Origin: an uncultured Clostridia bacterium
GTDB taxonomy: Bacteria; Bacillota; Clostridia; Christensenellales; CAG-138
Length of the DNA: 53,432 nucleotides
NCBI GenBank assembly: GCA_937894955.1
Contig: CALAXO010000070.1
Coordinates: 1 to 53,432, forward strand
Direction of reading: 5' to 3'
In this document: piece by piece, positions 19,900 through 41,124 of the stretch
How positions within the stretch are numbered: the first letter of the stretch is position 1
Layout of the letters: every line of letters starts with the position of its first letter
The notes under the pieces: generated by a model
Databases searched by the model: none
The model's input: only the letters and a program-made list of their open reading frames with translations
Told to the model about the DNA's origin: nothing
Position numbers and translations under genes: made by a program

Positions 19900-22764
19900 A
19901 TGAAATGCATAAACTGTGGTTCGGAAGATGTCATTTATCGAAAATTTCATCACATATGGGAATGTCAGGTTTGCGGCGAATCATTTGATTCCGATGAACG
20001 TGAAAAAATGACGGAGGAAATTAATGTTTTCTTCAGCTATGCGCATGACGATGAGAGTTTCGAAAACGGTGCAGTCGTTGTTGACAGGCTGAAACAGCTC
20101 ATTGAGGAAAAATCAGGCGGAAAAATCAAAATCTGGCTGGATACCTATTCCATTCCGAGGAATAAGGATTGGCGCGAACTCATAACAGGCGGCATTGTCG
20201 AAAGCGATCGTTTTGTGGGTTTCATGTCTCGAAAGGCGTTGCGCGACCCCGGTGTTTGCAGAGATGAACTCGGAATTGCCGTCGGCAGCCGCTGCGGGAT
20301 CATAAGCTGCGTTTTGCTTGAAGGCGAACGCACACTGAACCCTCCCGCAGAGTTTACCGAGCGGCAGTGGATCGACCTTTCGGATTGGAAAAAGAAGCGG
20401 GATGAAGGCGAAGCGGAATTCGAACGCTTTCTGAACGATGCTGCGGACGAATTGATTGGCATTTTGAAAGATCCGGAAACGCTGCGCTTCAATCACGAAG
20501 TGAAAAAACTGAAGGAATCCCTCGGAATTTCCGCCGTTGACGAAATGACCCGCATTGACGAATTGCTGAAGTTCAAAATGACGGGGCGCGGTTGGCTTGA
20601 GAGCAAAATCAACACTTGGCTGAACGACAAAAACGGTTCACGCGTTATGACCCTTTATGCCGACCCGGGCGCGGGCAAATCACTTTTTTCGGCACATTTC
20701 CAATTTGCAAACCCGAACGTCATCGCTGCACTTGCCTGCGACAGCCGAAGCGAGGAATACAGCCAAACGGACAAAATCACCGATCGCCTTGCCTACCTTA
20801 TCGCCCTTAGACTGCCGGACTATCGCCGGCAGCTGATGTATATTTTGACAGATAAAAGCACATTGACCAAAACGGGACACGACAGGTTTAACACCCTTAT
20901 CGCAACCCCGCTCAGCAGGGTTATAGACGGTGAACGCTCTGCAAAGCTCATCATCATTGACGGATTGGACGAAGCAAAGAGCGGTGCGCTCGCCGGGTTC
21001 ATCCGCAGCTATCATGACAAGTTGAAACCTTATATCCGCATACTTATCACCGCAAGACCCGAACGCATGCTCAGGCGGCAGCTGGCGCCTTCCGCCGAAT
21101 TCAGCTGCACGGAGCTGAATCTTGACGATTATGCCGAAATGAACGATGCCGATATCCGTCAATACTATGAAGAAAACCTCGAAGACCTGCTGAAGGACCG
21201 TCCCGGCCGCGATATTTTCATGAACCGCCTTGTTGAAGCAAGCAGCGGGATCTTCTACTATGCCTTCACGATCCTGCCGCAGCTGCGCGAGTCGCTCGAA
21301 AACGGGGAGCCGCTCGAAGGCATGACCTTCCCGAAGGGGCTCAACGCCTTGCTGCTCAAAACCTTCCTGCGAAAATTCGGGGAACCGGATGCTTCCGGCA
21401 GTGTCGAAAAATACAATGCGTTCGTGCGCGAGCCGCTTTCAATGGTCGCCGCCTCCCCCTATGCCCTCCCGCTCAAAACGCTGCAAAAGATGCAGGGCTG
21501 GACGAACGCCCGGCTGGAGGATTTTCTGCGCCCGCTGGAGACGATGCTCGACCTCAGCGGCGGCTTCATCCGCCTTTTCCACAAATCCTTCACGGATTGG
21601 CTGAACGACGGCGAGGCTTCCGCTGCGTTCTATGCGCCGCAGGAGGATGGCATACGGAGCCTTGCCGCCGCCTGCTTCAAAGCCTTTGAACAGGGCGCGG
21701 ACGAAATGGATACATATGAGCTTGCAAATGCTTCACGCCTGCTGCGCAGTGCGGGAATGAAGAAGGAATACGAACAGCTCACGGATTCTTCGGAATACAC
21801 CTCCGCACTGAAAAAACTCGCAAAAGCCTGTGCGGACGACCGGCAGCATGAAAGAGCGGCGGAGCTCTGTCTTGAATATGCGCGAATATTTAAGGAGAAA
21901 TGCGAAAAAAGCGGTGATCCGGAGCAGGCGCACGAAGCCGTTTGGGGCAATATTTATGCCTGTGATGCGCTGGGGGACATGCTTGATTATTCTGCGGCGG
22001 AGGTCGCTGCAAATGCAGCGCTGAAAATTGCGGAAGAGTTTGCGGAAAAGTACCCGGATGACCCGCAAATGCAGCGCGGCCTGAGCATTTCGTATAATAA
22101 ACTCGGCGATATTGCGAAAGCCTTGAACGATTATAATGCGGCGGAAGGGTATTATGCAAAGGCGCTTGCAATCAGCAAAAGGCTTGCGGAAAAGTACCCG
22201 GATGACCCGCAAATGCAGCGCGACCTGAGCAATTCGTATAACAGACTCGGCGATATTGCGGAAGCACGGAATGATTATAACGCTGCGGAAGTGTATTATT
22301 CAAAGGATCTTGAAATCAGGGAAAGGCTTGCGGAAAACTTTCCGGGAGTTCCGATGCTGAAGGACGATCTTGCCGTTTCTCTTTTCAAGTGCGGGACATG
22401 CAGCGCGGACGGAAAGCTTTCGCCCGAACAAAAAGCGATGCTGCGCAGCGCTGCCGCGATTTGGGAGGAGCTTTACAAACAAACGGGATATGTATTGTAT
22501 GCGGAAAGAAGAGAGCTTGCTCAAAACCGATTAAATCAATGCAGTGAAGAAGGAGGAGAGAATACGGAACAGAAGAAACCCGGATTTTTTGCACGGCTGC
22601 GTGAGGAAATCAGAGCGTATCGCAAGATGAGAAGGCTGATCAGATTGCTTAAAAGCACAGATAAAGCCGTCAAAGAAATGGAAAAAACGCGGCGTGAGAC
22701 GGAGAGAATCCTTGCAAAATCGGATGAGTTGAAGCCGTGCGGCGAAACGGACGACGAAGAATAA
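19900..22764 (+). CDS. Zinc-ribbon - TIR - STAND (NACHT/NB-ARC-like P-loop NTPase) - TPR protein, antiphage-type sensor/effector architecture
   Basis: CINCGS...CQVCGE zinc ribbon. TIR block VFFSYAHDD...WLDTYSIPRNKDW...VCRDELGIAV. Walker A LYADPGAGKS and Walker B KLIIIDGLDEA. C-terminal 48-aa TPR units (AEKYPDDPQMQR.LS.SYN.LGDIA...YNAAE.YY). Confidence 0.85.
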   Translation: MKCINCGSEDVIYRKFHHIWECQVCGESFDSDEREKMTEEINVFFSYAHDDESFENGAVVVDRLKQLIEEKSGGKIKIWLDTYSIPRNKDWRELITGGIVESDRFVGFMSRKALRDPGVCRDELGIAVGSRCGIISCVLLEGERTLNPPAEFTERQWIDLSDWKKKRDEGEAEFERFLNDAADELIGILKDPETLRFNHEVKKLKESLGISAVDEMTRIDELLKFKMTGRGWLESKINTWLNDKNGSRVMTLYADPGAGKSLFSAHFQFANPNVIAALACDSRSEEYSQTDKITDRLAYLIALRLPDYRRQLMYILTDKSTLTKTGHDRFNTLIATPLSRVIDGERSAKLIIIDGLDEAKSGALAGFIRSYHDKLKPYIRILITARPERMLRRQLAPSAEFSCTELNLDDYAEMNDADIRQYYEENLEDLLKDRPGRDIFMNRLVEASSGIFYYAFTILPQLRESLENGEPLEGMTFPKGLNALLLKTFLRKFGEPDASGSVEKYNAFVREPLSMVAASPYALPLKTLQKMQGWTNARLEDFLRPLETMLDLSGGFIRLFHKSFTDWLNDGEASAAFYAPQEDGIRSLAAACFKAFEQGADEMDTYELANASRLLRSAGMKKEYEQLTDSSEYTSALKKLAKACADDRQHERAAELCLEYARIFKEKCEKSGDPEQAHEAVWGNIYACDALGDMLDYSAAEVAANAALKIAEEFAEKYPDDPQMQRGLSISYNKLGDIAKALNDYNAAEGYYAKALAISKRLAEKYPDDPQMQRDLSNSYNRLGDIAEARNDYNAAEVYYSKDLEIRERLAENFPGVPMLKDDLAVSLFKCGTCSADGKLSPEQKAMLRSAAAIWEELYKQTGYVLYAERRELAQNRLNQCSEEGGENTEQKKPGFFARLREEIRAYRKMRRLIRLLKSTDKAVKEMEKTRRETERILAKSDELKPCGETDDEE

Positions 22765-23472: not shown

Positions 23473-26088
23473 ATGATAAAAAGGATAGTATCATTATTGA
23501 CGGCGGCTTTACTGATCTGCGGCATTTTATTCGGCGTCGCAGCATCGGTCGTTTTTGCGGAGTCGCTTTATGTTCGAAAAATCGTTTCGGTTGTTTACGA
23601 TGATTCCGCAAGCATGGGCGGTCAAGACTGGGCTTATGCAAATTATGCCATGCAGACCTTCTGCGGCATGATGAACAGCGAGGATCAGCTTTTTATCACA
23701 TATATGAGCGGGGTTCTGTACAACCCGCTGTACAAGCCCTACAGTGCGGATCTGTCCTCCGGAGGCATTCAGGGCTCCGTGGATTCCATACGCAGCCACC
23801 AGGACAGCGGCTCTACCCCGTATGATGCCGTTGACACAGCGATGCACAAGCTCGAAAAAACGAAGGATTCGAATCCGAACACACAGTATTGGCTTGTTAT
23901 TATTACCGATGGCTATTTTAACGAGATGAACGGCATGTATGAAGACCGGGCAGTGAATATGCTTGATACCAATCTTGCCGATTTTACAAAGAAGACAATG
24001 CCGAACGGCACGAACCCGCAGGTGACTTTTCTCAGCATCGGTGACGGAGCTGTTTCTCCGACAGAAAAGACGGACAAGGGCATATTTACATATCACGCAG
24101 AGGATGCGGAAGGAATAATGACGACTATGTCCGCAATGGCGGACAGAATCTCCGGAAGAACACGTCTTTCAAGCAGTGATATAACTCAAGTTAACGATAC
24201 AACCATTCGGGTTGAGTCTGCAATACCGCTGCTGAACATTGTTATGCTCCTTCAACAGACGGATGCAAAGCCTGTAAAAACCGTGATGAACAACGAGCTG
24301 TCCGCCGACGTGAGCAGGGAAGTTCGAGTCAGTTTCCCGGACTGCAGCAACCTTCACGGCGGAATTTTCATGATCGGAGATTCAGCCAAAACGATGCCTG
24401 CCGGCACATATGAAATTACATTTGATGAAAAGGTGAATGTTGACGATCTGGTTATTCTGTTCGAACCCGCACTTGAAATTCGAATGAGAGTTTTTGTGAA
24501 CGGACGTGAGATTACGGATTACAGCGAGCTTGACAATCTTTCGGAGGGCGATGAAATAACGATTTCGTGCAGGATCTATGAAATGGGAACGGATAACGAG
24601 ATCGATTCATCACTGCTGCCGCCGGACACAAGCTACCGAATCAGCATTGCCGAAGACGGCACGGTGAAGGCGGAGTCGACCGACTCGACCATGACTATTG
24701 ACAAATACAAACTCGGAAAAAGTGACACCGAACTCACAGCAACGATAAGCATTCCCGGATTTAACCCGATAAAGTTGAACTTTGAATTTACGCCTGCCGA
24801 ACCGGACGGAAGCTTTACTCTGTCTGCAGATTACGGCGGAACGGCTCAAAGCGTGAGACTGAACGAGATTTTCAGCAATAAGGATCTGTCAATTGTGTTT
24901 ACAATTTACGAGGACGGTGTTCAGGTCACCGATCCTGGGAGGATTAAAAAGCTGAATCCGGTTATTGACGTTTCGCCCGCCGGAAACAGCGGCACGATTG
25001 AGTACCTTAACGACGGAAGAATCAAATTCACGCCGAATAATGCAAATGTTGAGCCAAATGCGGAAGGAAGCATGGATGTTACGGTAACCTGCACACTGAA
25101 AACAGGTGCGGCAGCAGCCCACATGTATACGGTTGTGATTTCGGATTATAAGGTAATTGCGATTCCGCAAACGGAAAGCATTATTAAAACAGAATTCTTC
25201 GGAAATCAGATCGGCGCATCATTTTATATCACCAAGGACGGACAGCGCCTTCCGAAAACCGAAGTTGACGGCAAATGCAGCGTGACTGTGGATAAGCGGT
25301 TCAAATCGATTGAGCTTTCCGTTTCAACGGAAGCGGATGGAACAATTGTCTGCATTCCGACGGAGAATGCAGCTATGGATATAGGCTTTGCCGATTGGTG
25401 GATTTACTGGGTAAAATACCTGTTCAAACTTCCGCACGGAACGATGAATATTCACCTTTCATCTCCGTGGGGAGAAGCGGATTCCGAAATTGCAATAAAG
25501 GATGCTCCGCTGAAGTTCCGCCTGCTGAATGTTTATTTGCCGCTTCTTATTGAAACTGCGGCCGCAGCGACACTGACGACGTGGGTTATCCTTGTCGCGA
25601 CAAAACCGCGTTTCGCAAAGAAAGCACAGCTGTATGTGGGGGATGTGATTTACATAAACAGCAGCGGCTCCCACCGAATTCAAAATTTTAAATCGATAAA
25701 ATTGAAAAAGTACAATAGATTAAAGTACTTGTGGAAATTCAAGAGGAAAGCCGAGGTTATTAAGGTTTTGGGTGTGGCATTCCGCGCGGATTACGGAAAC
25801 ATAATAAGCTGCGAAATGATGATGCCGTGGTACAAATGCGAAATCAAGCCGGAAGACTGCACTGTTCAGGTTCCTGATGCGGATTCATTAAAAGACTACA
25901 TTGCAAGATATCACTATATTATGGTGGAGGAATTGTCGATGTTGACAAAGGTGATGGACCCGAGTGCAAAACGATTGGCAGCATCAGTCAACAGGTATCC
26001 AAGGTACTTGGTGATTCCGACGCAGGTAAGCAAGATTGACGAAGTCGAAAGAATAGTTAAGGCAAAGATAATTCTTTATACAAATTAA
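23473..26088 (+). CDS. Membrane-anchored von Willebrand factor A (vWA) domain protein
   Basis: GGAGG RBS and N-terminal signal/anchor (IVSLLTAALLICGILFGVAASVVFA). MIDAS DxSxS (VVYDDSASMGG), a GSTPY Thr and WLVIITDGYF. A long beta-rich region, one late TM (LLIETAAAATLTTWVILVATKP) and a tail of about 170 aa. Confidence 0.85.
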   Translation: MIKRIVSLLTAALLICGILFGVAASVVFAESLYVRKIVSVVYDDSASMGGQDWAYANYAMQTFCGMMNSEDQLFITYMSGVLYNPLYKPYSADLSSGGIQGSVDSIRSHQDSGSTPYDAVDTAMHKLEKTKDSNPNTQYWLVIITDGYFNEMNGMYEDRAVNMLDTNLADFTKKTMPNGTNPQVTFLSIGDGAVSPTEKTDKGIFTYHAEDAEGIMTTMSAMADRISGRTRLSSSDITQVNDTTIRVESAIPLLNIVMLLQQTDAKPVKTVMNNELSADVSREVRVSFPDCSNLHGGIFMIGDSAKTMPAGTYEITFDEKVNVDDLVILFEPALEIRMRVFVNGREITDYSELDNLSEGDEITISCRIYEMGTDNEIDSSLLPPDTSYRISIAEDGTVKAESTDSTMTIDKYKLGKSDTELTATISIPGFNPIKLNFEFTPAEPDGSFTLSADYGGTAQSVRLNEIFSNKDLSIVFTIYEDGVQVTDPGRIKKLNPVIDVSPAGNSGTIEYLNDGRIKFTPNNANVEPNAEGSMDVTVTCTLKTGAAAAHMYTVVISDYKVIAIPQTESIIKTEFFGNQIGASFYITKDGQRLPKTEVDGKCSVTVDKRFKSIELSVSTEADGTIVCIPTENAAMDIGFADWWIYWVKYLFKLPHGTMNIHLSSPWGEADSEIAIKDAPLKFRLLNVYLPLLIETAAAATLTTWVILVATKPRFAKKAQLYVGDVIYINSSGSHRIQNFKSIKLKKYNRLKYLWKFKRKAEVIKVLGVAFRADYGNIISCEMMMPWYKCEIKPEDCTVQVPDADSLKDYIARYHYIMVEELSMLTKVMDPSAKRLAASVNRYPRYLVIPTQVSKIDEVERIVKAKIILYTN

Positions 26089-26104
26089 ACCGGGAGGAAA
26101 CAAA

Positions 26105-29100
26105 ATGGAACAACAATCTCTGCTGATAGGCCTTGGCGGAACGGGAAGCCGTGTCGTCAACAATGTTACAAAGCTGCTCACAAAGAACGGAAAAATGTTC
26201 AATGATAATTTGGGACGGATCTGCTGCGCGGTGCTTGATTCGGACAAAAACGACTATGAGCTCATAACGAAAAGCGGAACGCAAATCCCTGTTTTTCCGA
26301 TCAGCAAACCGCAGAAAATTAAACAGTATTTTGCTCAGTACAGTAATCGAAAGATTGCTGAGTGGAGTCCGGATTCACCCACATTCAGAGAGCAAAGCAT
26401 GCTTGACGGCTGCTCCGAAGTGCGTGTAAAATCGCGAATTGCATTTTTCGATTACCTTGAAACCAACATGAACGGAGAACTGGGTGAACTTATCAACCGA
26501 GTGTTGAAAAATAACATGAATACTGTCATCAGGATCATGATAGTATCCTCACTTTCCGGTGGGACCGGCTCCGGTATGTTTATTCAAACCGCATTATGGC
26601 TTCGCAAACATCTTGCGCAGAGCAATGTGGTCATCCGCGGCATTTTCCTGCTTCCCGACATTTTTATTGATACGGTAAAACATATTCGGGAAACATCAGC
26701 CACAAGGATCAGGCATTATGCAAACGCGTACGCAGCGATACGGGAGCTGAATGCTATAACCAGGATAAAGGGAAATCTTCCGATAGCTTTAAATGAGAAA
26801 ATCGAGTTGGAGGGGCTTTTCGACAGCGAGAGTGATGCAAACAGAGGTAAACCTGTCTTTGATTATTGCTTCTTTATTGACAGCAGGAACGCCAAAGGTG
26901 TAGGTGCAAGCGATATTGCCGAATACGAGCAAATGGTAGCTCAACTTGTATACATGCAGCTTTATTCGCCAATGGCAGGGAACATGTATACTGAAGAAGA
27001 CAATTCTTTCTCTGCGTTCAATGAAAATCCCGAGCCGCTGTTTGGCGCATGCGGCTCTGCAAAGGCGGAATACCCGGTTGACAGTGTGAAAACTTTTTGC
27101 GCAATTCGCGCAGCGCAGGATTCCATCAAAAACGGATGGAACAGGATCGACAGCGAGATTGCCGCAAAAAGAGATGAGATCAGGGCAAGAGAAAGGGACG
27201 GAATATATCAGGCTGAAAACTTTGATCCGCGTGCCGAGTATATAAAACTCTTCGATGAAGCGACATCAAGGCGTGCGGAAGAATACGGAAAAGACAGATT
27301 TTTCTTGAACGTTGGACGAGATGTAAAAAATGAAACCAAACAAACCCGACCGGACGGAAAGGTAATTGTTCAGTATTCCGATAAGGTTGATGATTTCCTT
27401 AAGAAACTAAAAAATGACAAAATTGCGGAAGCTGTGACGGAACACAATGGCTTAGAGCCGTTTAAGCGTGATGTAAATGCTTTTGTGAGCGAAGATCATG
27501 ACGAATCTCAACTTGAAGAACTTATTACATTGGACGAAGACGGTATGCGCGAGGCAGTCGATATCTTCGAGGACAAGGTTAATGAATATGCGGAAAGCAT
27601 TGTAAATGCAGCGTTCCCGCTGAGCATGGGTGATGTGAATTCCGGCAACGCTTGTTCCATATTCGGCCTTGCAACAAAGCTGAACGATGAAGGAAAGCGT
27701 GTTTTTATTCACCCGGTTGCGTTGAGATACATCCTCTGCCGAATTGTTGAAAAAATGAGGAACGAAATAAAGGCAACACCTCTTGAAACGCAAAGGATCG
27801 ATGCTGATACGGGCGGGGAACCCGGAACAATGCTTGATAACAGGAGGACCCCCCACAAGACGGAAACAACGCCCGCGGAATTGCTGAACAGCAAGACGCG
27901 GTTTCAGCGGCCGGCGCGATTCCTTGACATGTATGAAAAGCAATATGCTGAGTTTATTAATACAAAGATTGAACTTTGTAAAAAATACGAAACGGAGCTT
28001 CTTAAAGTACGCGTATATGAAAAGCTGATAGAGCGTGTGAATGCACTGCTGACTCAACTCGAAGCCTTTTTCAAAAGGCTGCCGGATATTCAGGAAAAGC
28101 TCTACGATGAACTGGATAACAATATAAAAGCAACGAGCGGAACTATCGGAAACACGTATTATGTTTTCAGCAGCGCAAGGGACAAAGAATCAATTTACAA
28201 AGAGCTCGACCTGACTGCGGACAGAGCGGACGAAATAAGCCGAAGCGTGATCGAAACAGCTTATGGAAGACTTTGTGCGGAGCAGCGTCCGTCCGTGTCG
28301 GAGAATAAACCATATGCAAATCGAGGCATCGCTGAGAAGTTTATGATGGATTCGGTAAGAACTTTCCGAAAAAGAATTGACAGCGATCCGAACAATCGAG
28401 AGATAGTCAATATGGACATCTATACTGCAATAAGCAAACAATGGGATGCAGAGAATGCTGCGCATACGGATGCAGAGCAGATTGAACGTGAGTCGCTGAG
28501 GAGTGTGAACTTCGAAGAAGGTGAAGAGTCAAATCGCTTCGACAGAACGTTGGCAAGCAGGCAGGCTTTCAAGCAGTGTACGGATAAGTTATATGCAATG
28601 GCTGCGCCGATGCTTATCAGCGACATTGAGCCTGCGGATATTAATGACGGTACAATAACAACGAGAACAAACACTTTCTGGGGATTTAATCCGATAGTGT
28701 CAGAGCGGTATTCGGAAATTGGGGCAACCTTGGGCATCAATGCCGGAACCGAGCAGAATGACGCATATCCGATAAACGAGCTGCATTGCTACAGAGCGGT
28801 CTATGGTCTTGAAGCGAAATACATTCCGAAGTTAAATGAGATTAACGGAGGAGTTTACTACGAAAGCTACAAGAATATAATCACCAAAATGGTGCGCCGA
28901 GCGGCAGGCGGTGAAGAAGAAAACGCATATGTGTCAAGCCCGCATCTTGATAAGAGGTGGCATCGCATTTTGCCTTACGTTACTCCGGAAAAGAATGCTG
29001 AAAGCAAAGAAAGATTCTTCCGCGGCGTGTGGCTTGCGCTTGCATACGGAAAGATCAGGGTGAATGCGGACGGCAACTTCTGTTTGCGGCATCGCGTAGA

Positions 29101-29584
29101 CAACGGCCGGCGTATGAGCATTGATGAGGATGTCGTGATAATGCATGGAGGACGCGGAGTCGACAGAAAAGCGATTTACAGGCTGATCGCCGCATTGAAT
29201 GCTGATTTGTACTTCAAAGATATCGTGGTTCCGGAGCTTGAAGGGAAGTATGTTGCGGATGTCAACGGTAAGGACAGCTATGAAGACACAACGGTATTCA
29301 AAGCACTGAAAAATAACGATTGCGGGCTTAACCCGGTGGATACAGTGCTGCTGTATTACAACGGCCTGAACAGAGATTTTGATATTGCAGCTTCTATGGT
29401 CGGAGCGATCGATCGGATAGCTGAAGAGATCGGATCAAGGTTCGGCTTAGACACTGATGCGAAACGTGCTGAAAAAACAAAGTACATGATTTGCAAAGCG
29501 TTCTACGATGCGGCCACGTCTGACAAAGAAAAAGACAACTTGTTCAGAGAGTGGAAAGAAAAATTTGCGGAACTCGGTCTGTAA
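26105..29584 (+). CDS. Giant tubulin/FtsZ-superfamily GTPase-like protein (FtsZ-like-1 / Pfam Tubulin_2 type) with a ~750-aa C-terminal extension
   Basis: GGGAGG RBS 17 nt after the vWA stop. N-terminal LLIGLGGTGSRVVNNV (T1-like loop) and IMIVSSLSGGTGSGMFIQTALWL (tubulin signature GGTGSG). No TM segments. Confidence 0.8.
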   Translation: MEQQSLLIGLGGTGSRVVNNVTKLLTKNGKMFNDNLGRICCAVLDSDKNDYELITKSGTQIPVFPISKPQKIKQYFAQYSNRKIAEWSPDSPTFREQSMLDGCSEVRVKSRIAFFDYLETNMNGELGELINRVLKNNMNTVIRIMIVSSLSGGTGSGMFIQTALWLRKHLAQSNVVIRGIFLLPDIFIDTVKHIRETSATRIRHYANAYAAIRELNAITRIKGNLPIALNEKIELEGLFDSESDANRGKPVFDYCFFIDSRNAKGVGASDIAEYEQMVAQLVYMQLYSPMAGNMYTEEDNSFSAFNENPEPLFGACGSAKAEYPVDSVKTFCAIRAAQDSIKNGWNRIDSEIAAKRDEIRARERDGIYQAENFDPRAEYIKLFDEATSRRAEEYGKDRFFLNVGRDVKNETKQTRPDGKVIVQYSDKVDDFLKKLKNDKIAEAVTEHNGLEPFKRDVNAFVSEDHDESQLEELITLDEDGMREAVDIFEDKVNEYAESIVNAAFPLSMGDVNSGNACSIFGLATKLNDEGKRVFIHPVALRYILCRIVEKMRNEIKATPLETQRIDADTGGEPGTMLDNRRTPHKTETTPAELLNSKTRFQRPARFLDMYEKQYAEFINTKIELCKKYETELLKVRVYEKLIERVNALLTQLEAFFKRLPDIQEKLYDELDNNIKATSGTIGNTYYVFSSARDKESIYKELDLTADRADEISRSVIETAYGRLCAEQRPSVSENKPYANRGIAEKFMMDSVRTFRKRIDSDPNNREIVNMDIYTAISKQWDAENAAHTDAEQIERESLRSVNFEEGEESNRFDRTLASRQAFKQCTDKLYAMAAPMLISDIEPADINDGTITTRTNTFWGFNPIVSERYSEIGATLGINAGTEQNDAYPINELHCYRAVYGLEAKYIPKLNEINGGVYYESYKNIITKMVRRAAGGEEENAYVSSPHLDKRWHRILPYVTPEKNAESKERFFRGVWLALAYGKIRVNADGNFCLRHRVDNGRRMSIDEDVVIMHGGRGVDRKAIYRLIAALNADLYFKDIVVPELEGKYVADVNGKDSYEDTTVFKALKNNDCGLNPVDTVLLYYNGLNRDFDIAASMVGAIDRIAEEIGSRFGLDTDAKRAEKTKYMICKAFYDAATSDKEKDNLFREWKEKFAELGL

Positions 29585-29615: not shown

Positions 29616-29645
29616 TCCCGGCGGCGCATTAGGTGCCGCCGGGGA
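29616..29645 (+). other. GC-rich intercistronic hairpin (attenuator or processing/stability element?)
   Basis: CCCGGCGGC / GCCGCCGGG forms a 9-bp perfect stem (extendable) in the 84-nt gap between the tubulin-like gene and the next gene. No U-tract follows. Confidence 0.4.
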
Positions 29646-29668: not shown

Positions 29669-31960
29669 ATGCATACATTTTTTATCAATACATCCGACAA
29701 GAATGTTGACGAGGGAAAGATTCTGTTTGATATTAATTACGATAACAGAACGCTTGTTGCCATGAAGTGCCGCATTGAGGATTGGCCGGACAAGCAGAAA
29801 GGTTATTTGGCATACGTTGAAAAAATGAGCGAAATGATGGATATGTATGATATGAACGGACAGTTCAACTTGATTATATATATTGACCTTTCGACAATGC
29901 AAAAAGAAGCACTCGAACAAGATGCGATGGCAAACAGTTACAAAGGGTATATGGAGGCGTTGAGCATTGTGTACTGCCGAATTATGAGAAACACAGTAAT
30001 CAACGCTTTGGAATGCCGCAGCCGCAGCCCGAAAGAAATCCTGATAATGTTCGGTACAGAAGAGCAAAGAATTCGCGGGGCTGATATAAGCTCACCTTAT
30101 GAGAATAATTTGGTTATTGGCCCGCTGCGCCGCCTGATAGGTTTTCCGTCAGACGAGGAGCTTCGTGAACTTCACGATGATATGGCTTTATCCGAACATA
30201 ATGATGAAGAAAAAACGAGTGAAGTTCCCGCTGAATCCTGTAAAAAAAATGCAGAGTACTTCAGTGCTGCAGAACTATTTGCAGAGGAGTTTTCTAATTA
30301 TTGCAGGGAGGCAGAGACATCATGCGATCAGGAAAGAAAACATGAAGCGTATTTGGAGTTTGTGAGAACGGCGGTAAAAAATAATCAAAAATCGAAAAAC
30401 GGGACAAGGATTAATACGATATTTTGCCCTTTGGATAATGAAGCGGAAGCTGACAATAAAGCGGCCAGAACACTGGATTCGCTGCGAATTGCGTGTTATA
30501 TTCTTGCCTGCGTATACGACGGGACAATTTTCGACAATAACACGGAGCCAAAAGGACTGCGCTCGTTTGACGCCCTGAGCATTGAAAAGATGACAGAGGC
30601 ACTTGCAGAGAAAAAGAGGAAATATGTTTATACATTAGAATCATTAAAAGAAATGACCGGCAAGTTCAGCGAATTGGAGCTTGCACCTGTTTTGTACAGC
30701 TTTGAAGAAAATGTATTTGGCTATAATGAGGACGGAGATGCGATAAGCTGCTCTGTTGAACGTCCGGCCGGTGAGAGTAAGAAAAAAAAGAAAGCAGAAA
30801 GAAAAAAACGCAGAAAAAAAGAGGATATTTCCGAAACGGAAGACGGGAGGGTTATCGAAAGCGTCAAGTGCGAAAGAAAGAACTTGCTCAAAGCAAGAAA
30901 AGTTGAGTATTTCAGTCATAAAGAAAAGTTCAGCGAAAGCCCGGAAATCTCGGAAACAGCAGACGGATACATAATGCATTGTGAACGGTTAAAAGACTTT
31001 CAACTTGGTTTTCTAAAAAAAGTCCAAAATCATATACTTGGAATTTTGTCTCATTATGCCGGAAAATCCGATAACAATACAAAGGCAATTCTGCCCAAAA
31101 GGAGGGTCAGCCTTGCCGATCCGGATGTCGGAGATGAAACCAGAGAAAACTCGTATACAACATCCAAACTGCCGGAGGAGCGTGAAATAGAAAATGTTGA
31201 ACATAAAGCAAAAAAAATCTATAATGGTGCGGTTAAAGAGTATTTAATGTTTGAAGCTCGGGGGCCGCTTGCCGAGGTGGATATTTCACGGCAATGCGAT
31301 TGGTTTGCAACAAGGATTCGCAACATTGAATCAAGCAAAAAGATGCTTAAAATTATGTTTGGAGTGCTTACAGGTTTGTTGACGATCTCCTGCGTTCCGT
31401 ATATTGTTGTGCAGTGGAACGTGATTAAAGCATCGGCGGAGTCTATGCTTGTTGCTGCGGCAACGGTTCTGCTTCCGCTGCTGCTGCTGGCGGGGCTTTA
31501 TGTTTTAGAGGCAGCGAGGTATAAATACAAGTATAGACAGGCATGGCTTGAATTGATGGAAAAATATCGGGAAATTCAGCAGGAAAACCTTGAATCGATA
31601 GAAAATTATGATACGCTCATTTGCAGAATAATTCCAACATTGAGGTGGACCTATGAGTATAAACTTGACGTTGATTTCTTCAAGCAGTGCTGCATTTATG
31701 CGAGGGCAAAAATCATGCATCATGATAAAAAACTGAGGGAAAGGGTTAACGGCATCGGAAACCTTCTTGATAATCTCGGAGCAAATGGAAACGGAAGAAA
31801 TTCTTATGGAAGAAATTCTTATGATGGAGGTGAAAGCGATCGCAATGCTGTTGAATTTAACGAGGCATATTGCTGCGGAGAAAAAAACATTGCGTTTTAT
31901 ACTGTGATTGATCGGAATTTCATAAACGGTCTGCACAGCAAAAGGAGGAAAGATACATGA
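29669..31960 (+). CDS. Hypothetical 763-aa protein with a poly-Lys/Arg patch and two C-proximal TM helices
   Basis: Long ORF in the cluster with no motif I recognise. ESKKKKKAERKKRRKKED patch. TM helices MFGVLTGLLTISCVPYIVVQW and LVAAATVLLPLLLLAGLYVL. Confidence 0.7.
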   Translation: MHTFFINTSDKNVDEGKILFDINYDNRTLVAMKCRIEDWPDKQKGYLAYVEKMSEMMDMYDMNGQFNLIIYIDLSTMQKEALEQDAMANSYKGYMEALSIVYCRIMRNTVINALECRSRSPKEILIMFGTEEQRIRGADISSPYENNLVIGPLRRLIGFPSDEELRELHDDMALSEHNDEEKTSEVPAESCKKNAEYFSAAELFAEEFSNYCREAETSCDQERKHEAYLEFVRTAVKNNQKSKNGTRINTIFCPLDNEAEADNKAARTLDSLRIACYILACVYDGTIFDNNTEPKGLRSFDALSIEKMTEALAEKKRKYVYTLESLKEMTGKFSELELAPVLYSFEENVFGYNEDGDAISCSVERPAGESKKKKKAERKKRRKKEDISETEDGRVIESVKCERKNLLKARKVEYFSHKEKFSESPEISETADGYIMHCERLKDFQLGFLKKVQNHILGILSHYAGKSDNNTKAILPKRRVSLADPDVGDETRENSYTTSKLPEEREIENVEHKAKKIYNGAVKEYLMFEARGPLAEVDISRQCDWFATRIRNIESSKKMLKIMFGVLTGLLTISCVPYIVVQWNVIKASAESMLVAAATVLLPLLLLAGLYVLEAARYKYKYRQAWLELMEKYREIQQENLESIENYDTLICRIIPTLRWTYEYKLDVDFFKQCCIYARAKIMHHDKKLRERVNGIGNLLDNLGANGNGRNSYGRNSYDGGESDRNAVEFNEAYCCGEKNIAFYTVIDRNFINGLHSKRRKDT

Positions 31961-32799
31961 ACTTGCTCATAAGCATGCTGAAAATTGTTTTTGCCTTTGC
32001 AACAGTGTTCCTTGCAGCACTGCCGTTTGTTTTCGAGTACCACACGTACTTAAAAGATAAGGAAAAGAAAACGGCAAACAGGCGTTTCCGCATTATGTGC
32101 TTCACAATGATTTATGCGGCTGCGTTGACGCTTGTGCTTTGTGCTTTGCGTGATGTTATTACGGTCGTAGGCGGGTTGAGCGCAATTTCATGGTTGGCCG
32201 CCAAACTTGCATTGCCGGTGAGAGCGGCGTTCTTTTCAGATGTTGTTGCTGCGCTGTTAGTTAACTTCGCTATTGGATTTTTATTTAGATTACTGCTCAG
32301 GTTTGTGCGGATTGGGATGGGCAAGAGGAGCCTTAGTGAAGGCGAGAAAACAGGCGGCGCTTTCAGCTTCGCACAAAAAGTTGAAATCAAGGTAATAAAG
32401 CTTTTCAGGAAGGATGTCTGGGCGTCAGCTGCAAGCATTTTAAAAAGCCTAAGCATATTTTTATCAGCAGCATATGCTTTTTTTCAATTGATTGCTCTGT
32501 TTGGAGCAGACTGGGTTCCGTTTGATTTCCTTTCGCTTCTGTTCGATGCGGGAGCCAAGTATCCGGTGATTGCATTGCTTATGCTTTGGGAAAGCTTCTT
32601 TTTCCTTGACGGGATAAATGAGGACATCGATAAATGTCCTGAACCGGATCGATCGGAATATGAAAAATCTGATGAAGGTGAAACTGATATTGAAATGATG
32701 GACGAAGCGATTCGCAATGAGTTTGGAGCTTTTTATGCGTGTGATGTTGATGTGACTCTGTCGATTGATGATAGTGAGCAGGCAGATGATGCAAAGTGA
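31957..32799 (+). CDS. Polytopic membrane protein with acidic C-terminal tail (hypothetical)
   Basis: ATGA start/stop overlap with the preceding gene and a strong AAAGGAGG RBS. About 5-6 hydrophobic helices. Tail is EPDRSEYEKSDEGETDIEMMDE. Confidence 0.7.
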   Translation: MNLLISMLKIVFAFATVFLAALPFVFEYHTYLKDKEKKTANRRFRIMCFTMIYAAALTLVLCALRDVITVVGGLSAISWLAAKLALPVRAAFFSDVVAALLVNFAIGFLFRLLLRFVRIGMGKRSLSEGEKTGGAFSFAQKVEIKVIKLFRKDVWASAASILKSLSIFLSAAYAFFQLIALFGADWVPFDFLSLLFDAGAKYPVIALLMLWESFFFLDGINEDIDKCPEPDRSEYEKSDEGETDIEMMDEAIRNEFGAFYACDVDVTLSIDDSEQADDAK

Positions 32800-32836
32800 A
32801 GAAAAAGTATCAAACGCGAGAAAGGAAAATGATCTT

Positions 32837-35800
32837 ATGGAAAAACAAGCAACTATACAGAGATTTGATAAAAATAAAGTTGCGGATTTAATAATTGAAG
32901 CTGTCGAGCATAATTTCGGCAATTCCGAGCGTAAAAACAAAACATATCGAAATTGTATAGAAAGATTGGCAGAGTGCAGCAAAAGTGCAATAATAAACGG
33001 CAACATGTTTTCCGCATTTTCAGAATACTTCATTCGGTACTTGTTCATAGTAGCTGCAAGAGGGGATAATATCATTTTTATATGCAATACCGATGCCGAG
33101 ATAGAACTTACATATGATTTTCTTGTTCGGAAATTTTCGGAAATAACAAGTTTGCGTTGCAATGACAACACAGGTGAAATTAACCTTGATGATCCGATAT
33201 GGAAAATGATAAAGATAAAAGGCAGCGGAGATAATTCGGAAGAGGCTTCGGTAGATGAAAAAAGTATTCTTGTTACTTCATTGAGGTACCTTTCATCCTC
33301 ACGCTTCGAGAACGACCATAAAAGGTTCATTCACCTTATTGACACGGTTGTGTTTATTGACACGCTTGAAACCATAAACAAGTATAATCGTCAGATGACA
33401 ATGTTCAGTACAAGAGTTAAGCATATTGCCGAAACAAATGAATGCCTTGCCAGGAACGGAGGCAGGAACGAAGGGTTTCGTCTGAGATACATGGCACGTC
33501 CGATAAAGTATATTTGCTTTGATGATTCGAGGACACCCGGACTGGACAAGGTCCTTAAAAACCTTACGGCGGAGGAGTTTGAGTCTCTGGATGCAATGCA
33601 GTATAATCCGAACGCTGTCGTTAGGTGTTACAATTACGATGGATGCAAGGATATAGGCGGAAGAGTTGTTGTTCCGCAGTTTGTCAATACAAATGAAGAA
33701 TTGGGCCCGATGATGAATATCGCATTGATGTGTCTGAAGAAGGGAGCAAAATCCGTTGCGGTGTTTGCAGATGAAGACATACCATATGAAAACATTAAAG
33801 AGTCAATTGCAGCAAATGCGGGAGACATGAAAATCGGGGAGAAGCAGTTCAGGCTTAACAGTGCAGCGTGCGATGCAAGAGATTATTCCGTAATCATTGC
33901 AATGGACAGCGAAGAGAATCTTCCGAGGACATTAAGAAAGTATATATCATTGACGGCTTCTGAAAAAACGCTGATAATTATATTTTCAAAGCCGTACATG
34001 CTGCGTGATTTTTACTATGCAAATATCGATGAAATCTGGAGCAGGATTCAACTTGCGAGGATTCCGGTTGAAACCGGAACAAAAAAGGATTTTGCGCAGA
34101 AATTGCTTATAAGAGCGAGCTCGGGTGGAATGATTGTGGATGAAATATTCCGCTCGGCGTTGAATGTCAACACGAATGACTACAGAGAAATGGTGAATAG
34201 GCAGGATGTCGTCTCCATTCTTGCTGATGTGCTGGATATCTACGGCGTGTTGAACGTGGACGAAAAAGCAGACGATGAAAAAGCAAAACTCAGATATAGG
34301 GAACAAGTGCTGAAAATTTTCGAGTTTCGTCACGACTGTGTTTTCGGTTATGACGGTAAGTTCTGTTCAGAAGACAGAGTGTTTTTGCGCACAGAAGGAG
34401 AGCTGTATGATTTGATCAACGGACGGGACATGGCGTCGTTGATTTTGGACGGCAGCGATAAAACGGAAACCATCCCCCTTCCTCGTGCGAGAATAACTCA
34501 GAACTATATTGCAGGCCAAAATCTGGTATTTAATGGCAACATCTACACAATTAGAAACATAGATACCGAAAAGGGAATCCTGTATGTTCGTCTTGCTTTT
34601 GGAGGCATTAACACAGAGGTACATCAATATATCCAAAAAAGGGAATATATCATTCGCCTTGACGGCGAAAGTGCTGCTGTGCTTGCAAATAATGTTATAG
34701 TATTAAATGGCGCTAATAATGGTGAAATTGCCGTTGAGCAAGCATGGATTTCGGTGTTCAGAGCACCTACGGAGGTTATCACACACGGATATTACGAAGT
34801 CAGCTCAAGATCCTTTGCTCAGAACAACAATAATCAAAATTATCACATAATCGACGGTGAAGGTGATTCGCTTGCGCAAAGGTCATACAGACAATACGGG
34901 AAAGTGGTTGAACCGTATTACAAATCAAAGCCTGCCGTTGCCGGTAATAAGGGAGCTTTGATGATGACAATAAGGCTAAAGGGAAAACTTGGAGAAAAGC
35001 CGGAGAGAATTGCGAATCTTGCTGCTGCAATGATCAGGGAAATAATACGTTCAATGTTTCCCTCGGTGGCTGATTCCGTTGCGGTTTGTGTTTCGCAGCA
35101 AACTGAGGCTTGCGATACGGTTGATATCGGAAGACCCAAACTCACCGTGAAAGGAAAAAACAATATTTTTAATAAAGAAGACTTTGAGATTACATTAATT
35201 GAGGACAGCGTCACGGAACTGGGAGTTATATCTGCATTATCTGCATCCGGAGAGGACACACTCAAAACGCTTTTCACTCCGATTGATGAATATCTGGAAT
35301 GGTATTTAAAGTCGGAGAAAAAGAGCGATTACTTATATTACGGAAGCGACAGAGAGCCTGCGGGATTTGATTTTGTGTCCCTCTCAAAGTTGGCTGCATT
35401 GTTAGCAGACAGAGACCATGAACTTCGTTTTGGAAGATTACACGAGCATACAACAAATCGAAATTGTGATTTCTGTGGGAAGAGGGCACGGAAAAATGAA
35501 AGACTGGACAGGCTTTCGGACGGCAGGAAAATTTGTGATCAATGCAAGAAACAAATTGTGACGGGAAATAAAAGAGAACTGAAAGAACATGCGGCTGCTG
35601 CAAAACTCTTTCTTGAAAGTAATTACGGAATAAGAATTGATAATGAGTATGCGGTTTGTTTTGATTCTGCAGAGAGAATTTTACAAGAAATTAAGGCAAA
35701 GGGAGATACGGAATACAAGGGAGATATACCGCTTTTTTCCTTTTTCAAAAAAAAGAGGGTTCACGTTGAAAAAGGGTTGCCCTCAGCGAATCTGACCGAA

Positions 35801-37272: not shown

Positions 37273-37608
37273 ATGAAAAGATTGGTTTCGGTTGCAATTA
37301 TTGTTTTTATGCTTGCGATCTGCGCATGTTCCCCGGCAAAAAGAATTGTTGGGGAGTGGAAAACGCAAAGCACAGTGCTTGGAGTAGTTGTGGAAACGAC
37401 TTATGTCTTTGATGAAGACGGAACAGGCAAGAAATGCGGAGCCGCCGAAATGCCGTTTACATACGAGGTTCAAGACAATAAACTGTTGATAACAACAAGC
37501 ATCATAGGCGTTGATGTTTCAAAAAAAGAGTATTCCATTGATTTTAAAGGGAATACGATTATACTTACAGACGAAAATGAAACCATTGAACTCATAAAGA
37601 AAAAGTGA
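37273..37608 (+). CDS. Small lipoprotein, lipocalin-like (family I recall as DUF5640)
   Basis: GAAGGAAG RBS and lipobox LAICAC. GEWKTQ...YVFDEDGTG...FTYEVQDNKLLIT...YSIDFKGNTIILTD pattern. Confidence 0.65.
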   Translation: MKRLVSVAIIVFMLAICACSPAKRIVGEWKTQSTVLGVVVETTYVFDEDGTGKKCGAAEMPFTYEVQDNKLLITTSIIGVDVSKKEYSIDFKGNTIILTDENETIELIKKK

Positions 37609-40600: not shown

Positions 40601-41124
40601 TAGCTCGACATGAAGCCGGTCATGCGTTTCTTTGCTGGCAAGGCGGTGAAACCCCATCATATGTTACAGTGGTTGCAAGAGCGAATCATGGCGGTTATAT
40701 GCAGCGCGGTGACAACGAGGAAAAACCAATTTACACAAAGCGTGAATTGATTGGAAGGATCCGAACATCTCTTGGCGGGCGTGCGGCTGAGATGGTTTAT
40801 TACGGCAACGAAGACGGAATTTCAACCGGCGCAGCGGGAGACTTGGAAACTGCAACATCCTTGTCAAAGCGCTTGATATGCAGTTACGGCATGGTTGAAG
40901 AGTTCGGCCTTGCAGCAGTAGATCCGAATTCAGCGAGCGGTGAGCTTTCGAACGAGATAAGAAAAAGTATTAACAACATACTGGACATTGAGCTGAAGAA
41001 GGCAATACGAATTATCAGCGAGAATCGGGAAGCCGTAGACAAGCTTGTTGAAAAATTGCTCAAAGATGATTATGCTGCCGGGGACGAAATAGACGCGATT
41101 TTCGCATCGTGCATTAAGGGTTAA
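37654..41124 (+). CDS. TM-less fusion protease: Clp-N-like region + ClpA/B D2-type AAA+ module + receiver-like spacer + FtsH-type AAA+ module + M41 zinc peptidase
   Basis: First module: Walker A FAGPPGVGKT, Walker B LILLDEVEKAH, LLQILDAGRIRD. Second module: LYGPPGTGKTMLAKAMAGE and ILFIDEIDAI. HEAGH at 40609-40623. No hydrophobic N-terminal helices, unlike canonical FtsH. Confidence 0.85.
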   Translation: MEELEYSPLLRRLIEKATELDGEPNHKLTAEGFIAAVVCYVRDVSDPDSQRLKNMLKLKLPTAISDPNDIATDFILHATGKATPESRRIDESYIEGCLKKARCIAASEGSGEVHAYRLLKCILDEPNDFIRNYIVFDDLSETEQTVPGIQTLEDAYTRIFGSDTAEAQKSSHSGECKKETRKEAQKSIADIIKRTKLIQEYLSERVFGQDNAVSVFVEGYFRAELSSLTDKSSNRPRATFLFAGPPGVGKTFLAEKAAEAISYVEEKEIPFVRFDMSEYCDKESSLEFIGSDGVYKGSKSGNFTSFVEKNPRCLILLDEVEKAHISIIHLFLQILDAGRIRDSKTDEEVSLASAIMVFTTNVGKQLYENSESIDFSILPRKVILKALQKDVEPNTKMPYFPAAICSRFASGNVVMFNHIRAHELWEMTKREVLRSAESFTKRTGIGVSVDEKAYTALLLAEGGAADARAVTSQARTFLNNEIYEMFRLLSSDRSKTGIGKLEEISIEVDLKSDNDEINCLFNNTEMQNAMMVSTSDIIEECMKQSSGVVFLGAEDIKSAKNIVHNNELSFAVVDLSLRERGNSELLNQEDIESTGRDIFWYLRENLPNLPIYVLEKNSQTLSKEEKRSLLKQGIRGILRIGDDAATFDRSIEDICVRVHQQKSMNMLARANKLISFETSQKVSEDGKHAVITLFDFETETAIEAEDSSNIMSTVSRPNIRFDHVIGAEDAKKELKYFVEYLKNPGKFIGTGVSAPKGVILYGPPGTGKTMLAKAMAGESNATFLFAEGNQFLSRYVGGGSEKVHELFRTARKYAPSILFIDEIDAIAKERRGEDRTGAEATLTAFLTEMDGFNKDLSKPVFVLAATNFDVESGGSKSLDPALMRRFDRRVLIDLPNKAERRTYLKMKINKNNVFNVSDSKLENIVVRSTGMSLAALESVAELALRMAIRNGEMKVTNEVFEKAFETFNSGESQKWDSATLERVARHEAGHAFLCWQGGETPSYVTVVARANHGGYMQRGDNEEKPIYTKRELIGRIRTSLGGRAAEMVYYGNEDGISTGAAGDLETATSLSKRLICSYGMVEEFGLAAVDPNSASGELSNEIRKSINNILDIELKKAIRIISENREAVDKLVEKLLKDDYAAGDEIDAIFASCIKG

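Follow-up and report, generated by a model that had tools for sequence, protein, structure and literature searches.

An exported vWA protein and a tubulin-family protein in a four-gene FtsZl1 cassette of Clostridia: predicted topology and mosaic evolution

The DNA considered here, hereafter the window, comprises positions 1 to 53,432 of contig CALAXO010000070.1 from an uncultured Clostridia bacterium (assembly GCA_937894955.1). It carries a pair of adjacent genes, part of a same-strand run of large genes, of which the first (gene 1) encodes a protein with a vWA domain that is predicted to be exported and membrane-anchored, and the second (gene 2) encodes a large tubulin-like protein. An earlier note on this DNA had described the two genes as translationally linked and their products as topologically complementary, and had seen in them an unusual signaling arrangement. 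Neither PADLOC nor NCBIfam searches provide a name for these genes or for the two that follow them (genes 3 and 4). The features of the pair are listed below, with positions numbered along the window and amino acids (aa) numbered along each protein. Structure models were made with AlphaFold2 (AF2).

23473-26088 (ATG at 23473, stop codon 26086-26088), + strand: gene 1, vWA protein of 871 aa, a predicted type-I membrane protein
23473-23559, + strand: signal peptide, aa 1-29, with predicted cleavage between VFA and ES (A29/E30)
23578-24153, + strand: vWA domain, aa 36-227, with metal-ion-dependent adhesion site (MIDAS) residues D43xS45xS47 at 23599-23613, T115 and D146
24181-25500, + strand: stalk of immunoglobulin (Ig)-like/cadherin-like beta-sandwich domains, aa 237-676 (AF2 secondary structure, Foldseek)
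25543-25599, + strand: single transmembrane (TM) helix, aa 691-709 (hydropathy, K/R asymmetry), inside a long model helix of aa 680-710
25600-26085, + strand: predicted cytoplasmic tail domain, 162 aa, alpha+beta (AF2 predicted local distance difference test, pLDDT, about 85-94)
26092-26097, + strand: GGGAGG Shine-Dalgarno sequence of gene 2, 3 nt past the gene 1 stop codon and 7 nt before the gene 2 ATG
26105-29584, + strand: gene 2, FtsZl1/Tubulin_2 family protein of 1159 aa, soluble
26105-27139, + strand: tubulin/FtsZ-fold GTPase-like domain, aa 1-345 (Pfam PF13809, Foldseek)
26129-26149, + strand: T1 loop G9LGGTGS15, glycines invariant in 64 homologues
26555-26575, + strand: T4 signature S151GGTGSG157, glycines invariant in 64 homologues
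27140-29581, + strand: family-specific C-terminal region, aa 346-1159 (~815 aa), mostly helical (AF2)
27911-28132, + strand: long helical hairpin, aa 603-676 (AF2), which contains the ELLKVRVYEK... stretch
29616-29644, + strand: GC-rich stem-loop 3′ of gene 2, 12 bp of which 10 are G-C, without a U-tract

Gene 1 is clearly real, with more than 360 homologues, and its product is composed of a signal peptide, a MIDAS-bearing vWA domain, an Ig-like stalk, one TM helix and a folded cytoplasmic tail. The protein begins with MIKRIVSLLTAALLICGILFGVAASVVFA, after which the predicted cut is followed by ES. A signal-peptidase site of the VSA/ES type at A29-E30-S31 is conserved among 56 homologues, and the AF2 model (built on 56 homologues, pLDDT 86.9) has a helix at aa 2-21 followed by low pLDDT at aa 23-31, as for a signal peptide. 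The MIDAS motif begins 14 residues past the predicted cleavage site and is complete (DxSxS...T...D), with D43, S45, S47, T115 and D146 invariant in the 56 homologues. The Pfam VWA match is below threshold (20.2 versus 23.8 bits, E = 7.7e-4), and the vWA fold of the model aligns by Foldseek to the vWA structure 4fx5, to complement factor B/C2a and to integrin. Among the best Foldseek matches of the protein are the S-layer proteins SbsB/EA1, 4fx5, cadherins, titin Ig domains, factor B and integrin, and the ectodomain as modeled is of an extracellular-type architecture.

The segment at aa 691-709 is the sole late hydrophobic segment of the protein. In nearly all of ~75 homologues, K and R residues are more numerous past this helix than ahead of it, and this excess fits an orientation with the N terminus outside and the C terminus inside. 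The signal peptide and the extracellular-type architecture agree with the positive-inside rule in predicting that the vWA domain lies outside the cell and the tail inside. The topological complementarity that the earlier note proposed is thus borne out by these predictions, including its layout of a signal, a vWA domain, a beta-rich stretch and one late TM helix, and its tubulin-like partner has no TM helix. The check suggested there was whether topology analysis puts the vWA domain in the cytoplasm; hydropathy, charge and the AF2 model all place it outside.

The tail is modeled as a confidently folded domain, not as a disordered stretch. The description of it as a basic tail of about 170 aa holds for the window protein, whose 162 aa carry a net charge of +14, but basicity is not conserved, since the charge ranges from -1 to +18 in relatives. 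The layout is otherwise uniform from the Oscillospiraceae to the Bacillus cereus group, as judged by hydropathy and charge in ~75 homologues: a signal sequence, the DxSxS motif ~20 residues on, one late TM helix and a tail of 160-190 aa (118 aa in Bacillus). No sortase motif or cell-wall anchor is present in the vWA protein. The tail defines a family with 36 representatives among 1.84 billion proteins, and it is C-terminal in every near-full-length member (about 860-1220 aa).

Gene 2 is likewise clearly real, with more than 600 homologues in which the C-terminal region, too, is conserved over its whole length. Pfam Tubulin_2 (PF13809) matches aa 6-341 with 164.3 bits (cut-off 27, E = 6e-48) and spans positions 1-355 of the 356-position profile. 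This Pfam family is equivalent to the FtsZl1 family defined by Makarova and Koonin (Biol Direct 2010, PMC2875224). In 64 homologues, G9, G11, G12 and G14 of the T1 loop and G152, G153, G155 and G157 of the T4 signature are invariant. The AF2 model (64 homologues, pLDDT 86.6, predicted template modeling score 0.73) yields CetZ 3zid_A as the top Foldseek match of the N-terminal domain (E = 4e-5 over 332 columns), and more than 200 tubulin-type chains follow at E <= 1e-3. As modeled, the N-terminal ~345 aa adopt a genuine tubulin/FtsZ fold. This agrees with the earlier view that the GTPase-like region is confined to the first ~350-400 aa, and the concern that the GGTGSG region might belong to a non-tubulin Rossmann fold is answered by CetZ and tubulin chains being the best matches of its model.

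Pfam Tubulin (PF00091) produces only a sub-threshold match over the T4 region (aa 130-192, 28.3 versus 33 bits), FtsZ_C and Tubulin_C have no Pfam match in the protein, and a PDB search with the tubulin-like profile returned no meaningful match. When the family profile was aligned to Escherichia coli FtsZ with hhalign, the T1 loop alone was aligned, with a probability of 0.95%, and T6, H7 and T7 were not placed. A conserved F239-D240-S241 follows an H7-like helix at aa 198-223 in the model and is a candidate T7-like acidic loop. The remainder of the protein, which the earlier note had described as helical and devoid of recognizable motifs, comprises ~815 aa with no match in Pfam, NCBIfam or PDB sequences; besides the helical hairpin at aa 603-676, it holds two small alpha/beta subdomains in the AF2 model, one at ~aa 854-1011. 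Hydrophobic segments at the TM level are absent from the window protein and from all but three of ~75 homologues, and each of these three has one segment just at the TM threshold.

The start codon of gene 2 lies 16 nt past the stop codon of gene 1, rather than the 17 nt previously given, and there is no overlap between stop and start. The gene has its own GGGAGG, as had been noted. Across 50 Clostridia loci, the two genes are separated by a median of 28 nt (range 2-816), and the second nearly always has a GGAGG of its own. Because of the 16-nt gap, the separate Shine-Dalgarno sequence and the median gap in relatives, the earlier claim of translational linkage gives way to co-transcription, and the arrangement is best described from its sequence as ordinary operon adjacency. 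In Thermus oshimai, the vWA and tubulin-like genes overlap by 20 nt.

The stem-loop behind gene 2 recurs among relatives. A hairpin of differing sequence is present at the same site in 36 of 37 relatives, such that structure rather than sequence is conserved. At this site, the best hairpin has a mean energy of -28.1 kcal/mol, compared with -13.4 +/- 3.6 for random windows, 8.6% of which reach -19. A T-rich tract follows the hairpin in only 7 of the 37 loci, and no comparable hairpin is found behind gene 3 in the compared cassettes. The hairpin is probably an intra-operon attenuator or a 3′ stabilizer of mRNA that would set the pair apart as an expression unit.

Relatives of the locus were collected by a profile scan of one genome per species, which yielded 80 loci in which the window proteins were compared by tblastn and open reading frames (ORFs) were called. 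Peptide patterns taken from the single sequence had recovered no relatives in a genome scan. In all 76 related loci where both members of the pair could be called, the tubulin-like gene is immediately preceded by a vWA gene of the same orientation. About 40 Clostridia loci share a one-strand order of vWA gene, tubulin-like gene, gene 3 (~750 aa) and gene 4 (~1730-1800 aa), with proteins 25-50% identical to those of the window. In Bacillus cereus-group loci, only the first two cassette genes are detected, at ~24% identity. The distribution of the cassette is patchy. Two divergent Tubulin_2 loci occur within the same metagenome-assembled genome in two cases (L031/L051 and L049/L055), and a 25%-identical homologue of the tubulin-like protein is present on a 9.8-kb unannotated ‘Bacteriophage sp.’ contig from human feces (MT836542.1).

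Ahead of the vWA gene, ~16 related cassettes have additional genes that are missing from the window, and roughly half of these cassettes have all four. One pair consists of a ~300-aa protein and a ~96-aa HxxxCxxC protein, neither with a Pfam match, which are possibly sigma/anti-sigma-like. The other pair consists of two paralogous YbjN-like (PF10722) proteins of ~160 aa. The extras are located at 1802-3992 in L011 and are found also in L017, L027, L038, L042 and others. On plasmid pTHEOS01 of T. oshimai (L088, NC_019387.1, 76449-93213), a gene for a TROVE-domain protein lies upstream of the vWA/tubulin-like pair, and genes for a BrxL-like Lon protease, a 3′-5′ exonuclease and RecQ lie further downstream, a defense-like context in another phylum.

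We compared the evolutionary histories of the cassette parts across 30 complete cassettes and the window, using uncorrected distances and pairs that are not independent of each other. The tail of the vWA protein tracks the tubulin-like protein, with Mantel rho values of 0.72 for the tubulin-like N domain and 0.73 for the tubulin-like C1 domain, and it tracks the gene 3 N domain at 0.66, whereas rho for the tail versus its own ectodomain is 0.26. Given the ectodomain, the partial Mantel value for tail versus tubulin-like N domain is 0.70; given the tubulin-like N domain, that for tail versus ectodomain is 0.07. Average-linkage clusters of tails and tubulin-like N domains are nearly identical (adjusted Rand index, ARI, 0.95), whereas ectodomain clusters cut across both (ARI 0.23 with tails and 0.19 with tubulin-like N domains). 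Physical linkage contributes to this pattern, although the correlation of the tail does not decay rightward, being still 0.73 with the C1 domain more than 2.5 kb away, and leftward it collapses inside the gene at the TM helix.

Individual pairs of loci illustrate the exchange. Between L011 and L038, sliding windows of the ectodomain are 67-87% identical up to the TM helix, after which the tail falls to 17-40%, the tubulin-like protein ranges over 15-67%, gene 3 over 10-50% and the first two thirds of gene 4 over 20-65%, until the last ~590 aa of gene 4 return mostly to 65-92%. The reverse is observed between L007 and L011, whose ectodomains are ~50% identical and whose tubulin-like N domains are mostly 82-95% identical. 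Overall, the distance of the tail exceeds that of the ectodomain by 0.30 or more in 75 pairs and is the smaller of the two in 27 pairs. These latter pairs rule out a uniformly faster rate in the tail as the source of the break, because a uniform difference in rate is insufficient for discordance that runs both ways.

When a change point was fitted to the vWA protein by maximum likelihood, its median fell at residue 710 (interquartile range 706-717) in an 885-aa numbering scheme that has the TM helix at 705-723. In 11 different type combinations, it stays within or beside this helix (medians 693-743). As far as these alignments tell, ectodomain and cytoplasmic tail thus evolve as separate modules, and the tail is inherited together with the tubulin-like protein and gene 3. 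The tail, the tubulin-like protein, gene 3 and the N-terminal two thirds of gene 4 form a central block with one history, whose right-hand boundary in gene 4 varies. Co-segregation of tail and tubulin-like protein is what specific docking would predict, and is not proof of it. The ectodomain (23578-25500) and the last ~590 aa of gene 4 (~35450-37240) also correlate with each other (Mantel rho 0.73; seen in L011, L018, L038 and others), and this shared history could reflect either replacement of the central block between them or a co-adapted ectodomain and transglutaminase (TGase)-like domain.

The genes that surround the pair in the window, with their features, are as follows. The labels ‘B5’ and ‘B12’ are those of Makarova and Koonin.

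29669-31960, + strand: gene 3, 763 aa, ‘B5’ by position and size
31343-31504, + strand: TM hairpin of gene 3, aa 559-612
31957-32799, + strand: gene 4, N-terminal piece, 280 aa, 4-5 TM helices
32765-37243, + strand: gene 4, main piece, 1492 aa, ‘B12’
35465-35545, + strand: Zn ribbon of gene 4, C901/C904/C924/C927
36458-36802, + strand: transglutaminase-like core of gene 4 (Pfam match), triad C1294/H1330/D1345
37654-41124, + strand: double-AAA+ protein with M41 (FtsH-type) protease, 1156 aa, soluble, a facultative neighbor
19900-22764, + strand: TIR + NACHT/NPHP3_N STAND NTPase + TPR protein, 954 aa, directly upstream of the cassette
51720-53246, - strand: large serine recombinase, at the end of the window

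Gene 3 is fast-evolving, with only 29 detectable homologues, and has no match in Pfam, NCBIfam or PDB. Its product consists of a cytoplasmic N-terminal region of ~555 aa, the TM hairpin and a C-terminal region of ~150 aa. The gene occupies the ‘B5’ position, which in other lineages is beside the GTPase. Identification as a SLATT or GAP1 protein is unsupported by Pfam at E <= 1.

Gene 4 is a single ORF of ~1730-1800 aa in 34 of 34 relatives in which it is intact, with 4-5 N-terminal TM helices followed by ~1450 aa. The fifth helix is weak, and on its being real depends the side of the membrane on which the TGase-like domain would lie. The TGase triad and the Zn ribbon are at least 95% conserved in relatives, and the sole PDB match is the TGase-like domain 9crn. 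A zincin motif, annotated in the published description, was sought as well; in the candidate RELTHAWQ, the position of a His required for HExxH is taken by a conserved Arg, and HExxH is not conserved in gene 4 of this subfamily. In the window, gene 4 is split by a change of frame within ~32765-32845. An assembly error is an unlikely cause: the frameshift is probably real because a separate, gap-free European Nucleotide Archive (ENA) assembly (L085, 99.99% identical) carries the same gene 4 sequence. The split gene could be a pseudogene or a two-polypeptide version. Right behind it, at 37273-37608 (+), is a small gene for a DUF5640 (lipocalin-like) protein, which is found also at 21048-21383 of L001, a locus whose tubulin-like protein is 48% identical to that of the window. 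The DUF5640 protein may be an accessory component.

The FtsH-like neighbor has both Walker A/B pairs intact (GPPGVGKT at 244 and GPPGTGKT at 762) and HEAGH at 986, and unlike canonical FtsH it has no TM helices. Its gene adjoins the cassette on either side in six loci (L019, L022, L033, L047, L053 and L057), and the protein partly matches the PADLOC models of the IetA/IteA anti-phage ATPase. The TIR-NACHT-TPR protein has an architecture like that of Avs/bNACHT anti-phage proteins, and its gene is not conserved beside the cassette in other genomes. The TPR region of this gene includes a 154-nt tandem direct repeat (~22040-22193 and ~22184-22337, 88% identical).

The flanks of the window are chromosomal, with citrate lyase and fumarase genes upstream and genes for RpiR and a dockerin-bearing subtilase downstream. 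The G+C fraction is 0.41-0.48 at ~22-40 kb, compared with ~0.5 across most of the flanking DNA. Because a low-G+C stretch lies between housekeeping genes and a serine recombinase gene is found at the end of the window, the TIR-STAND gene, the cassette and the FtsH-like gene (~19900-41100) suggest a horizontally acquired island.

How might such a set of proteins work? FtsZ is tethered to the membrane by FtsA and ZipA, whereby the cytoplasmic part of a membrane protein docks a polymer-forming cytoskeletal protein. Integrins bind ligands through an extracellular MIDAS site of the vWA type, signal across a single TM helix and couple to the cytoskeleton through talin. Our preferred reading, which we hold tentatively and rate somewhat short of even, is that the cassette encodes a machine that signals from the outside in, from a receptor to a GTPase scaffold, with protease-like outputs anchored in the membrane. 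In such a machine, the product of gene 1 would be exported by the Sec pathway and anchored by its C-terminal TM helix, so as to present a MIDAS head on an Ig-like stalk outside and the 162-aa domain inside, the layout that its sequence and model show. From the strict co-segregation of types, we infer that this inner domain would be the cognate docking module for the tubulin-like protein, with the N-terminal domain of gene 3 as a probable second partner. Binding or clustering of a surface ligand, relayed through the TM helix, would recruit the FtsZl1 protein or nucleate its GTP-dependent assembly at the membrane; assembly at this site is proposed by analogy with FtsZ-FtsA/ZipA and with the coupling of integrins to the cytoskeleton.

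The FtsZl1 assembly would then scaffold or activate the TM-hairpin protein of gene 3 and the polytopic giant protein of gene 4, joined in some genomes by the FtsH-like protease, and the membrane partners might respond by proteolysis, cross-linking or perturbation of the membrane. The vWA and tubulin-like genes would be an expression sub-unit closed by the stem-loop, with products probably in excess over those of genes 3 and 4. The trigger would most likely be an invader or an envelope event. This last step, a role in conflict or defense, is the weakest of the scheme. It is proposed because of the low-G+C stretch, the TIR-NACHT-TPR neighbor, the mosaic evolution and the occurrence of multiple loci per genome, together with the classification of related systems by Kaur et al. 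(PMC7159879) and the defense-like neighbors in Thermus. In its fullest form, the cassette would carry out, for Gram-positive bacteria, integrin-like outside-in surveillance of phage, epibionts or neighboring cells, with the tail type-specifically nucleating a tubulin polymer that engages TGase-like and protease effectors, and with sensor and engine exchangeable at the TM helix. We regard this full form as unlikely.

Several observations weigh against the receptor-to-GTPase scheme and its extension to defense. Since gene 4 is frameshifted here, the window copy of the cassette may be impaired. The tail adjoins the tubulin-like gene, and linkage combined with a recombination-prone boundary could account for co-segregation instead of binding. 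PADLOC-DB v2 yields no significant defense-family match for genes 1-4, the flanks of the cassette elsewhere are mostly housekeeping genes rather than defense islands, and we found in the literature neither experimental work on, nor a defense role for, any FtsZl1 protein. Finally, Makarova and Koonin (PMC2875224) reported that T6-H7 are not identifiable in the FtsZl1 family.

The strongest competitor, although unlikely in our estimation, is a housekeeping machine for membrane remodeling or cytoskeletal work, in which FtsZl1 filaments on the inner face of the membrane, anchored by the vWA tail and by other membrane proteins, would shape membranes, vesicles or surface structures without sensing invaders. 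Such a role is the published proposal (PMC2875224). It suits a cassette in which three of four proteins are membrane-bound and the fourth is a tubulin-superfamily protein with a coiled-coil-like hairpin, and the ordinary metabolic genes that flank the cassette in several genomes and the lack of a PADLOC match speak for it. However, a housekeeping role sits poorly with the patchy distribution and the multiple paralogous loci in some genomes. Type-swapping in a mosaic and a fast-evolving gene 3 are more typical of conflict or sensor systems, and a long stalk tipped with an intact MIDAS head implies that there is a ligand outside the cell.

Signaling might instead run from the inside out, as in integrin activation, so that the cytoplasmic GTPase and its partners set the clustering, conformation or turnover of a surface vWA adhesin used for attachment to host mucus, plant fiber or other gut cells. 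The resemblance of the ectodomain to adhesins, S-layer proteins and cadherins is in keeping with this possibility, as are its exchange independently of the cytoplasmic module, the gut and rumen Oscillospiraceae that are the hosts, and the dockerin-bearing subtilase nearby. But control of an adhesin leaves the protease-/TGase-like giant partner and the FtsH-like protease unexplained, the two-gene form exists in soil Bacillus, and a sortase motif or cell-wall anchor is lacking. We consider it improbable.

Similarly improbable is the absence of any direct coupling, whereby the two genes would merely be co-transcribed in a larger operon, the tail would bind something else, such as gene 3, gene 4 or lipids, and co-segregation would simply follow from physical linkage and recombination in blocks. 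On the DNA, the tail is indeed contiguous with the tubulin-like gene, the whole central block has one history and the tail also correlates with the gene 3 N domain (rho 0.66), yet the correlation persists without decay to the right while collapsing at the TM helix to the left, and the Bacillus cereus-group loci in which only the vWA and tubulin-like genes are detected point to two sufficient partners.

The preferred reading, that of a receptor coupled to a GTPase scaffold, lends itself to experiment. Because tails and tubulin-like proteins fall into matching types, cognate versus non-cognate binding is directly testable, and the two-gene version in genetically tractable strains of the Bacillus cereus group offers a further handle. 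If coupling between tail and GTPase is real, a tubulin-family protein would operate in transmembrane signaling rather than in division or segregation. If the surveillance reading were true, the FtsZl1 family would have its first function, and bacterial immunity its first tubulin homologue that acts as a switch in signal transduction. Few branches of the tubulin/FtsZ superfamily have diverged as far as FtsZl1/Tubulin_2, and we found in the literature no mechanistic account of its constant partnership with an exported vWA protein, 15 years after the description.

The parallels with FtsA/ZipA and with integrin-talin are analogies only, and the vWA tail has no sequence relationship to these proteins. 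Compared with canonical FtsZ, tubulin, TubZ and CetZ, the window protein has no C-terminal domain match and is encoded in a membrane-protein operon. A comparison may also be made with the membrane-proximal degradation operons of the MoxR-vWA-YebA(TGL) type and the FtsH-type MoxR-vWA ternary systems (Zhang and Aravind 2012, PMC3495828; PMC7159879). Like the cassette, these combine a vWA protein with a transglutaminase-like peptidase anchored in the membrane, to which some loci add a double-AAA+ protein of the FtsH type. They differ in that the cassette has no MoxR, the nearby AAA+ protein is FtsH/Clp-like and facultative, the NTPase here is of the tubulin superfamily, and the vWA domain is predicted to be extracellular rather than part of a cytoplasmic co-chaperone. 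Moreover, the FtsH-like neighbor has two AAA+ domains that both look active, whereas in the published ternary systems the N-terminal AAA+ domain is inactive.

The GAP1-N2 GTPase-centric conflict systems described by Kaur, Burroughs, Iyer and Aravind (eLife 2020, PMC7159879) include Firmicute and actinobacterial tubulin+vWA neighborhoods. The Firmicute tubulin systems among them encode a TM-anchored protein with an extracellular vWA domain. The likeness lies in tubulin-domain proteins with C-terminal coiled coils and in the TM-anchored extracellular vWA domain, and those systems are considered membrane-proximal and are read as regulated cytoskeleton-like assemblies with vWA-mediated peptide binding (PMC7159879). 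In contrast, the defining DO-GTPase is not detected in the window cassette, nor is GAP1 by Pfam or NCBIfam, and the cassette has one tubulin-like gene and one vWA gene with TM-hairpin and TGase-like giant proteins as partners. Specifically for the DO-GTPase, Pfam and NCBIfam reveal no P-loop GTPase domain in the cassette proteins, and none was found among the cassette neighbors of relatives.

The closest match is the family in which the locus belongs. Makarova and Koonin reported that most FtsZl1 genes are in predicted operons with a vWA protein, in many cases one that bears a signal peptide or TM segments and keeps its MIDAS motif intact, and proposed a membrane-remodeling role for these operons; the first reviewer of that paper questioned the pairing of an exported vWA protein with a cytoplasmic FtsZl1 protein (PMC2875224). 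Additional file 5 of the same paper lists ‘Bacteroides’ capillosus (BACCAP_04124-04121: vWA 861, FtsZl1 1183, B5 658 and B12 1435 aa), Ruminococcus lactaris (RUMLAC_01529-01526) with the same order of vWA, FtsZl1, B5 and B12, and Bacillus thuringiensis (BT9727_3336/3335: vWA 699 aa and FtsZl1 1120 aa) without B5 or B12. The window locus shares with these operons a diverged tubulin/FtsZ domain joined to a large helical, coiled-coil-containing C-terminal region, an upstream vWA partner with a signal peptide and/or TM segment and an intact MIDAS, and the gene order and similar gene sizes of R. lactaris and ‘B.’ capillosus.

The locus, from an Oscillospiraceae-like gut bacterium, is therefore a member of the FtsZl1-vWA operon family, of the four-gene Clostridia subtype vWA, FtsZl1, ‘B5’ and ‘B12’, and has no essential difference from the operons of 2010. 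The arrangement that the earlier note found unusual had thus been described in that year (PMC2875224), with related systems following in 2020 (PMC7159879); the pairing itself is no new kind of system and would not surprise a specialist. For gene 4, the analysis finds a transglutaminase-like core where the published B12 was annotated with a zincin and a Zn finger. For the FtsZl1 family, it adds this core in B12, structure models and the conservation of vWA topology. Beyond both papers (PMC2875224 and PMC7159879) are the mosaic evolution of the cassette with its break at the TM helix, the conserved stem-loop behind the tubulin-like gene and the gene 4 frameshift in this genome.

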